Positions 21,516-21,956 of a stretch of 23,488 bases of DNA are shown here, one piece after another (positions within the stretch are counted from its first letter, which is position 1; each line of letters starts with the position of its first letter). Location: the IMG/VR virus record IMGVR_UViG_2671180903_000008, positions 1-23,488 of that record; one strand, written 5' to 3'. Under the pieces are notes generated by a model. The model saw only the letters and a list, made by a program, of their open reading frames with translations, did no database searches and was not told where the DNA came from. This DNA is from a virus (Duplodnaviria; Heunggongvirae; Uroviricota; Caudoviricetes). The translations under genes and the position numbers were made by a program.

Positions 21516-21701
21516 TCAGGGCGGACAACAACGCCACGATCTCATCTTTCTTGGGCAATTTTTAAGAAAATCCTCAAGGGCAAATCTTTTTGGCCTTGCT
21601 TCCTGTTCATGGTCAGGCATTTCATCCATTTCTCTTAATTTTTTTTCTACCTGTCTTTCAAGTATGGATAATGCGATTTCCCGTAATTCTTCGTTGTTCA
21701 T
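21516..21701 (-). CDS. Hypothetical small charged protein, 61 aa, downstream partner of the RHH gene
   Basis: Strong AGGAG ribosome-binding site 6 nt upstream of the ATG; helical, Glu/Lys/Arg-rich N-terminus; 57 bp after the RHH stop on the same strand. Confidence 0.4.
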   Translation of the reverse strand: MNNEELREIALSILERQVEKKLREMDEMPDHEQEARPKRFALEDFLKNCPRKMRSWRCCPP

Positions 21702-21758
21702 TGTCTACTCCTGTAAAGAAATGCGCCGTAGTTCCTCACACCACGGCGCTGATAGTGA

Positions 21759-21956
21759 TTATTCTGATTCTTTGGCCTTCCGGCGCTGTTCATATTTTAA
21801 TTTGCGTCCACAGGCATCTAAGACCCATGCGGAAAAATTAGCACTAGGATTAGTTAATTTTTCTTGTTCAACGCTGGCATCAATCCCATCTATAAGCTCA
21901 TGCGGGAATCGAATATTTTTCTTTGCTGATTTGTTGTTTGTGTTACCGCTAGACAT
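21759..21956 (-). CDS. Small DNA-binding protein, probably ribbon-helix-helix
   Basis: 65 aa; KKNIRFPHELIDGIDASV...NFSAWVLDAC fits a beta-strand/helix/helix RHH layout; GAGGTG ribosome-binding site 5 nt before the ATG; divergent from the small-gene operon. Confidence 0.45.
   Translation of the reverse strand: MSSGNTNNKSAKKNIRFPHELIDGIDASVEQEKLTNPSANFSAWVLDACGRKLKYEQRRKAKESE

Follow-up and report, generated by a model that had tools for sequence, protein, structure and literature searches.

Described systems and the YlcI family

The immI region of phage P22 encodes Mnt and Arc, ribbon-helix-helix (RHH) proteins of 53-83 aa that regulate their own synthesis and act at palindromic operators in compact divergent or overlapping promoters. 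Here we analyze a locus that invites comparison with them, in a 23,488-nt stretch of viral DNA (Caudoviricetes; IMG/VR record IMGVR_UViG_2671180903_000008, positions 1 to 23,488; hereafter the window), where two small minus-strand genes, ylcI and an open reading frame (ORF) for a 61-aa protein, converge on alpA, and ylcI is divergent from an operon that begins with a gene for an Icd-like cell-division inhibitor. The reading that we favor, and that comparison of related loci makes fairly probable, is that ylcI encodes an allele-specific, autoregulated repressor of the early operon of a phage satellite of the phage-inducible chromosomal island (PICI) type, and that the 61-aa ORF is a separate accessory gene confined to Escherichia, not a toxin partner of ylcI.

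YlcI is like Mnt and Arc in being a small predicted RHH protein associated with palindromes, and in its proposed task of holding off an operon that would be harmful when untimely. There is no detectable sequence relation, since the Pfam Arc model was matched by only one of 41 YlcI family members (E = 0.009), and the ylcI locus differs in having three sites on two back-to-back promoters and in facing an icd-like and replication operon rather than an antirepressor gene. The same logical position is held by the master repressors of Gram-positive PICIs, Stl and Rpr of the Staphylococcus aureus pathogenicity islands (SaPIs), divergent from the excision-replication-packaging operon, where they are the presumed keepers of quiescence (PMC6092414). 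Stl proteins, however, are large helix-turn-helix repressors that are relieved by helper-phage proteins, whereas YlcI is a 65-aa protein of predicted RHH type, and induction of the Gram-negative PICIs goes through AlpA, unlike the relief of Stl. For these islands the global repressor has been called 'unclear', and AlpA is described as an activator, also of its own expression (PMC6092414).

Two further kinds of system bear on the comparison. The immunity RNAs C4 of phage P1 and CI of P4 (C4, RF01695; isrK, RF01394) occupy the same slot, directly upstream of the icd-like or kil gene, in the islands that we label L004 and L043, and they serve the same purpose; C4/CI immunity is RNA-based and acts on the transcript, whereas the window has a protein and predicted DNA operators. 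Type II antitoxins of the RHH class (ParD, CopG/RelB-type, TacA, VapB and the C-terminal domain of HicB) share with YlcI the predicted RHH fold, the order of small genes and probable autoregulation; YlcI, in contrast, lacks both a toxin-binding extension and a conserved toxin partner, and its gene is not coupled to a second one. By analogy, the ylcI locus would be closest in working logic to Mnt/Arc and Stl/Rpr and, in position, a protein counterpart of C4/CI RNA immunity.

By the curated thresholds of two hidden Markov models (HMMs), the 65-aa protein is a member of the YlcI/YnfO (DUF3950) family: it scores 59 bits against NF041551 (cut-off 30) and 28.3 bits against PF13132 (cut-off 25), and it matches phrog_949 with E = 1.4e-27. 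YlcI of DLP12, YnfO of Qin and a lambda orf belong to the same family and share with it the IRFP strand and the NFSAWV(I/L)xAC helix at about 43% identity. The phage copies lie between the lysis/bor region and cos-nu1, where neither an icd operon nor an operator triad was seen. Lambda, 434, HK629/630 and many Shiga toxin (Stx) phages encode YlcI beside cos, and the lambda protein (48113-48304 of LC730321.1) is identical to that of DLP12 (L055, K-12, 8252-8446); lambda is a reported helper of the island EcCICFT073 (PMC6092414). A literature search on the function of YlcI, YnfO and DUF3950 returned mentions of the names only and no functional study.

In an AlphaFold2 model of the monomer (41 homologues; predicted local distance difference test, pLDDT, 73.5), residues 1-18 of YlcI are extended and are followed by helices at 19-35 and 41-64, leaving about 12 residues past the RHH core. 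This is the strand-helix-helix layout of the RHH superfamily, with the limit that a beta-strand cannot be called from a monomer model. The preliminary description of this DNA, made from its letters alone, had proposed such a layout, and the structure model agrees with it; the search for a significant RHH-family HMM match, on the other hand, failed. No RHH sequence model reached significance among the 41 YlcI members, whose best sub-threshold Pfam E-values were 0.0021 for HicB_lk_antitox, 0.0092 for Arc, 0.026 for NikA-like, 0.13 for CopG_antitoxin and 0.24 for RHH_1; the RHH part of HicB_lk_antitox was reached in this way by 10 of the 41. A Foldseek search of the PDB with the model and a PDB sequence search with the YlcI profile each gave no match, and PADLOC matched neither YlcI nor the 61-aa protein. 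The RHH layout of YlcI is, in our view, reasonably supported by the model, although not proven.

Putative operators, candidate promoters and predicted specificity

The case for a repressor begins in the region between ylcI and the icd-like gene (Table 1). Copies of the palindrome TGTGCGCACA at 22031 and 22054, which the preliminary description had already pointed out in the divergent promoter region, were confirmed, and together with the imperfect copy TGGGCGCACA they are the only matches with one mismatch or none in the 23.5-kb window. Their number alone is ordinary, with three or more matches in 14 of 100 shuffles; what stands out is that the three are clustered in 80 bp of a single intergenic region. 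With promoters assigned by consensus, the locus has the layout of a master repressor, that is, a gene divergent from the early operon and palindromes over both promoters.

A scan of one genome per species yielded 37 ylcI loci outside E. coli, in Serratia, Rahnella, Klebsiella, Enterobacter, Pectobacterium, Brenneria, Pantoea, Erwinia, Xenorhabdus, Proteus, Morganella, Arsenophonus, Gilliamella and Orbus. Many of them have int-alpA convergent on ylcI and an icd-like gene divergent from it, among them loci of Serratia, Klebsiella, Enterobacter, Pectobacterium, Pantoea, Xenorhabdus, Proteus and Morganella. In all 37, the intergenic region reads in one order toward ylcI: site A, 9 nt, site B, GTCAA, a T-rich stretch, TGTATAGT, site C, a Shine-Dalgarno sequence and the ATG. 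The GTCAA after site B is the complement of the TTGAC -35 element of the divergent operon, which is placed invariantly beside site B throughout, and a TAnnnT hexamer stands 18 nt past TTGAC in nearly all loci; TGTATAGT, the equivalent of the ylcI -10, is likewise kept in other genera.

The three sites are alike inside each locus and different between loci, and their type tracks four residues of YlcI immediately ahead of the invariant IRFPHE strand, an N-terminal arm that reads AKKN in the window (residues 11-14). Arms of the type xKKN go with TGTGCGCACA (Escherichia, two loci of Rahnella, Klebsiella, Erwinia and Xenorhabdus), TTKG with GGTGCAyAwACAC (seven genera), xYKG with GTGTTTAAACAC (Pectobacterium, Xenorhabdus and Morganella), AKKH with GTGTGwACCCAC (Pantoea and Xenorhabdus) and KRKD with TGTCCGCACA (Gilliamella and Orbus). 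A Mantel test of site B against arm distances gave r = 0.56 (p = 2e-4), and a partial r of 0.40 remained once the spacer DNA and the remainder of YlcI were controlled for. Loci of the KKN group share all three operators without change, while the spacers between them have diverged. AlpA and Icd could be ruled out as the operator-binding protein, since some loci keep identical operators and yet lack homologues of the two or encode very different ones, which leaves YlcI as the one consistent candidate for the protein that reads the sites. The autoregulating RHH repressor that the preliminary description had put forward thus gains from the family assignment, from the operators over both promoters and their conservation across genera, and from this covariation with the arm.

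Two of the genomes hold two ylcI loci each, Xenorhabdus kozodoii (L029 and L032) and Serratia sp. Ag1 (L007 and L009). The X. kozodoii pair differs in arm and operator, TTKG with GGTGTACAAACAC in one case and DKKN with GGTGTGCGCACAT in the other, a difference that is suggestive of hetero-immune co-resident satellites.

The slot upstream of icd also has other occupants. In L004, an E. coli satellite that lacks ylcI, it holds isrK (52 bits) and a C4 antisense RNA (74 bits; 73.8 as the positive control). Scans of the window for the two RNAs gave no match, either at E <= 1 or, in a more focused search, at E <= 10, and the 16 ylcI loci scanned have neither. In L059 (NZ_CP025318.1, FORC_042), the slot is filled by an unrelated 59-aa ORF (1860-2039 of the locus, minus strand) with an RHH layout by eye (PFQFRLDPDLREKMEKA...SLAAWIKRIIRKEL) and palindromes of its own, GTGTAATGACACATTACAC; the gene behind it is identical to the 61-aa gene of the window. 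EcCICFT073 (L058, NC_004431.1 1377930-1388654) encodes a divergent YlcI-like protein, C_RS30120 (hhalign probability 97%); its GTGGGCCACAC sites follow TTGACG in the identical arrangement, its icd leader is the same, and its 57-aa gene C_RS30800 is related to the 61-aa family (hhalign 85%). L043 carries on its plus strand (3638-3943) a 101-aa YlcI variant (phrog_6522) with a C-terminal extension and its own GTGAATACCAC sites, followed by a 56-aa relative of the 61-aa family; this island also holds isrK and C4 RNA, so that protein and RNA immunity modules are not strictly exclusive. Taken together, these occupants form the pattern that would be expected of interchangeable immunity modules.

We suggest a model in which YlcI dimers would bind the three palindromes of the back-to-back promoter region. 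On O2 and O3 they would shut the early promoter, so that the icd-like gene, the small ORFs and the genes for replication and packaging would stay silent while the island rests, and on the weaker, imperfect O1 they would limit the synthesis of YlcI itself (negative autoregulation). The 61-aa protein would be reached only by read-through across its leader hairpin, and its level in the resting state would be low. DNA binding, repression, autoregulation, the promoters and read-through are all inferred here by comparison. In Pseudomonas, AlpA is an antiterminator (PMC7969949, PMC9371919). Speculatively, helper-induced AlpA could override repression through transcription that starts from alpA, runs antisense through both minus-strand genes and enters the early operon; such read-through might bypass the operators and interfere with ylcI.

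The 61-aa gene and alternative readings

The two minus-strand ORFs have the positions, the Shine-Dalgarno sites and the convergence on alpA that the preliminary description had given them. It had gone on to consider them a possible toxin-antitoxin, addiction or abortive-infection module, and had named beforehand a lack of co-conservation as the finding that would speak against this. Co-conservation is in fact largely lacking. No homologue of the 61-aa protein was found at any of the 37 ylcI loci outside E. coli. Among 71 matching E. coli genomes, 69 have the ylcI allele of the window (at least 95% identity) and five have the 61-aa region (at least 80% coverage), and in the O157:H7 islands L003 and L056 the same ylcI allele is present with nothing between it and alpA. 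Conversely, the commonest members of the 61-aa family lie in islands without ylcI, L004 and L052, together with C4 RNA or an Ash-primase operon. The alleles are also mixed: ylcI of the KKN type is found with 61-aa, 57-aa or 74-aa variants or with none, and the 57-aa variant is found with two different YlcI types. In the window the two ORFs are separated by a 57-nt gap with a stable hairpin, and there is no translational coupling. Of three marks of a type II toxin-antitoxin system, a co-conserved unit, a known toxin family or fold, and tight coupling, none is present. We read the 61-aa gene as a presumably independent accessory gene of the variable zone, with a regulatory partnership as a minority possibility.

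The stem-loop in the gap goes with the 61-aa family and not with ylcI. It ends 24 nt ahead of the ATG throughout the family, and the same distance and a GAGG-containing loop are kept in islands that lack ylcI. The gap has a minimum free energy (MFE) of -21.1 kcal/mol (z -3.8), and the stem-loop shows covariation, with 90% of cells paired and compensatory change at four of nine pairs, a result reached by none of 500 shuffles; no Rfam family matched it. As an alternative, the element could be an inverted-repeat site for a protein. We saw no separate promoter for the 61-aa ORF, which points to its expression by attenuated read-through from the ylcI promoter.

That the 61-aa protein resembles nothing recognizable, as the preliminary description had remarked, was borne out: it has no Pfam, NCBIfam, PHROG or PADLOC match and resembles no known toxin or defence family, a PDB search with its profile gave nothing significant, and a tblastn search of the family against 50,697 phage records gave no match. 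With the single sequence, we retrieved two proteins from 5.8 billion protein clusters and, in an exhaustive search of 1.84 billion representatives, five true relatives. A profile search extended the family to 26 clusters, of which all those with a named organism are from Escherichia and are annotated as hypothetical; the commonest are found on at least 1000 contigs (P0127) and on 352 contigs. The leader and the first 60 nt of the ORF have a DNA match in 1510 of 5426 complete E. coli genomes (about 28%). AlphaFold2 predicts a helix at residues 3-27 (pLDDT above 90) and short helices at 41-48 and 51-58, an arrangement that corresponds to no known toxin fold. Our best guess is that the protein may be a helical adaptor, whose binding partner would come from the host, the helper phage or the island.

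Several observations weigh against the reading set out above. The Proteus locus L028 has an EKKN arm and other sites than those of its class, one locus against the arm-operator rule. Arm and operators are no more than 100 bp apart, so their covariation could partly reflect linkage in mosaic recombination. The -10 proposed for the early promoter is weak at most loci, and in the window position 22050 is G where eight related islands have A, which changes TAATCT to TGATCT at the most critical base; the copy of the island in the window may carry a crippled early promoter. The phage homologues of YlcI beside cos have no operator triad, so that a role as repressor may be limited to the satellite subfamily. 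Finally, within E. coli an RHH-type gene is immediately followed by a gene of the 61-aa family in the window, L002, L043, L049, CFT073 and L059, and the two may have some functional link.

Such a link could take the form of joint regulation, in which YlcI would be the repressor and the 61-aa protein a co-factor of the resting state, for instance an anti-activator of AlpA or a protein that modulates the repressor. The 61-aa family is found only in elements that also have alpA, the gene would be on the repressor transcript, convergent on alpA and silenced by read-through from it, the self-activation of AlpA (PMC6092414) calls for a brake, and the pair recurs in E. coli, EcCICFT073 included. The AlpA-bearing satellites of other genera, however, all do without the 61-aa family, the three unrelated N-terminal types of the family have no matching variation in AlpA, and position is the sole basis of the proposal. 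We consider it unlikely, while keeping it in view.

It is rather unlikely that the 61-aa ORF is untranslated and that its conservation is that of an RNA or DNA element of the ylcI transcript, made up of the leader hairpin, a 3' untranslated region and terminators. Annotation is one reason to consider this, since PGAP leaves the ORF uncalled in the nearest genomes, and the exact allele is predicted on only one or two contigs among 15 billion predicted proteins. The hairpin and the first 60 nt are, moreover, the most conserved block of DNA, the hairpin covaries, and in the MFE fold the U-rich tract past the stem-loop pairs with the Shine-Dalgarno sequence of the ORF. The coding frame nevertheless behaves as one: at 41-55% identity the family retains its ATG, its frame and its length (56-63 aa), dN/dS is 0.2-0.5 with synonymous change saturated, a deletion of six codons is in frame, and PGAP annotates other alleles. 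The N-terminal half of the protein is highly variable and of three unrelated types, whereas the C-terminal motif PKRFALEDF(L/V)xKYPRRLK is conserved as protein even where the DNA stops aligning. From these patterns the 61-aa ORF is probably a real gene.

A different role for YlcI, as an activator, a partition protein or a recombination directionality protein, or the reading of the palindromes by another factor, seems improbable to us. RHH proteins do include centromere binders (ParG, omega) and accessory recombination factors, a poor early -10 could need activation, and the homologues of lambdoid phages beside cos have no early operon near them. The placement of the sites, inside the spacer and at the -10/+1 of the two promoters, nevertheless fits occlusion, not activation, and no ParA-type partner is present. 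As to another factor, only the YlcI arm covaries with the sites, while AlpA and Icd fail to follow them, and in L059 it is a non-homologous RHH-looking gene that replaces ylcI and brings palindromes of its own. A type II toxin-antitoxin or abortive-infection cassette, with YlcI as antitoxin and autorepressor and the 61-aa protein as toxin, is highly improbable: the RHH gene stands first and the small gene second on one strand, the classic order, YlcI weakly matches the RHH part of HicB-like antitoxins and genes of the 61-aa family often follow RHH-type genes in E. coli islands, but against this stand the absence of the partner from other genera, the solitary ylcI allele, P0127 and P0132 with no antitoxin-like gene adjacent, alleles that shuffle freely and show no coevolution, a predicted helix that is coiled-coil-like in a protein with no toxin family or fold, the little room that some 12 residues past the RHH core leave for a toxin-neutralizing tail, and the hairpin-bearing spacer.

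Genomic setting and implications

We return to the favored reading, of YlcI as a satellite repressor beside an independent accessory gene, and to the element in which the two genes lie. The features of the locus are collected in Table 1.

Table 1. Features of the ylcI locus and its surroundings, in window coordinates.
Feature	Position	Strand	Basis or remark
Tyrosine integrase (P4-type), left end of island, adjoins roxA	19338..20588	+	ORF list and annotation of relatives
alpA, convergent with both minus-strand genes, co-oriented with early operon	20953..21141	+	Pfam Phage_AlpA PF05930, E=5.4e-17
Second strong hairpin and U tract, between minus-strand unit and alpA	21289..21343	-	-21.7 kcal/mol
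Terminator-like hairpin and U8 tract, 77 nt 3' of 61-aa ORF	21412..21439	-	-12.2 kcal/mol, z -4.5
61-aa ORF, Escherichia-restricted small-protein family	21516..21701	-	ATG start
Shine-Dalgarno of 61-aa ORF, AGGAG	21712..21708	-	6 nt ahead of ATG
Stem-loop in gap between ylcI and 61-aa ORF, then AUUUCUUUAC; terminator-like	21723..21749	-	Conserved with 61-aa family
ylcI, 65-aa YlcI/YnfO (DUF3950) protein, predicted RHH	21759..21956	-	ATG start
Shine-Dalgarno of ylcI, GAGGTG	21962..21967	-	5 nt ahead of ATG
Putative operator O1 (site C), TGGGCGCACA, imperfect; abuts -10/start of ylcI promoter	21984..21993		Same position kept in 37 loci
Candidate ylcI promoter: -35 TTAACA 22021..22016, 17-nt spacer, -10 TATTGT 21998..21993	21993..22021	-	Consensus scan
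Candidate early (icd-operon) promoter: -35 TTGACA 22025-22030, 18-nt spacer, -10 TGATCT 22049-22054	22025..22054	+	Inference
Putative operator O2 (site B), TGTGCGCACA, within early-promoter spacer	22031..22040		Palindrome
Putative operator O3 (site A), TGTGCGCACA, over early-promoter -10/+1	22054..22063		23 bp from O2, centre-to-centre
Stem-loop and CUAACCA(C)AACG motif, then Shine-Dalgarno, in leader of icd-like gene	22090..22140	+	Conserved
Icd-like cell-division-inhibitor gene, first of divergent early operon	22162..22365	+	NCBIfam phage_ICD_like NF033153, E=1.4e-19

We took as PICI-type an island with int and alpA at one end, then replication (primase/rep) and then packaging or capsid genes, a length of about 10-16 kb and a specific att site. 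In the window the island shows int, alpA, the icd-like gene and small ORFs, after which the sequence ends at 23488; it is a mosaic, whose right-hand part is covered by no relative at high identity. Of the E. coli islands that carry the same module, the nearest are L001, a capsid-forming PICI (cf-PICI), and L056, a classical PICI at the cspD/clpS site of O157:H7, and the model island EcCICFT073 also carries the module, at the same roxA site. The stretch from alpA to the replication genes has been described as a 'dynamic/Bro zone' (PMC10111431), and in cf-PICIs the gene downstream of alpA as a variable region 'of unknown function' (10.1101/2025.02.11.637232).

Upstream of the island module, the window holds roxA, pepT, potAB and a truncated lambdoid head-tail module. 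The latter, a lambdoid/HK97-like module at 1-13266, has TerL, a protease-capsid fusion, a portal, a tail tube, a 1080-aa tape measure and a minor tail protein; it ends ahead of the tail-tip genes and adjoins potB, some 6 kb from the island. The genome of EcCICFT073, like the window, has a lambdoid prophage adjoining potB.

A 388-aa ORF on the plus strand (21199-22365) was rejected as an artefact of the opposite-strand genes, because it overlaps two conserved genes in antisense and also spans the promoter region. Its equivalent in FORC_042 is annotated by PGAP (WP_173571708.1), probably a mis-call. Over its first 47 codons (21199-21340) this frame is similar to the beginning of a decayed Bro-N-type gene of CFT073, and in relatives PGAP marks these codons as a pseudogene.

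The leader of the icd-like gene holds a conserved element of its own. Its stem-loop shows compensatory change at seven of ten predicted pairs across 28 distinct loci, and the motif that accompanies it is almost invariant. The element is also present in L006-L042, L058 and L059 and stays with the icd-like gene under any type of upstream repressor. No Rfam family matched the hairpin; a resemblance of 18 bits to R1162 antisense RNA, far below threshold, is a lead only.

A broader proposal goes beyond this locus. RHH proteins of the YlcI family might fill the vacant place of master repressor in Gram-negative PICIs and cf-PICIs, EcCICFT073 included, with interchangeable alleles of arm and operator defining immunity groups; the paralogues of YlcI that helper phages (lambda, 434, Stx phages) encode beside cos might then induce the islands by forming mixed, non-binding dimers through the NFSAWV(I/L)xAC core, and the 61-aa family might be an accessory factor of the resting state. 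We offer this whole as a long shot.

The narrower reading has implications of its own. Gram-negative PICIs and cf-PICIs are widespread vehicles of gene transfer, and YlcI would be a concrete candidate for their repressor. For the uncharacterised DUF3950/YlcI family, the analysis proposes a function, together with putative operator sequences and a predicted code that relates residues of the protein to the operator. A plausible but unsupported toxin-antitoxin annotation is removed from the locus, and a family of small E. coli proteins that had gone unannotated is flagged. Protein-based and RNA-based immunity modules, moreover, appear to swap at a single slot upstream of icd-like genes.

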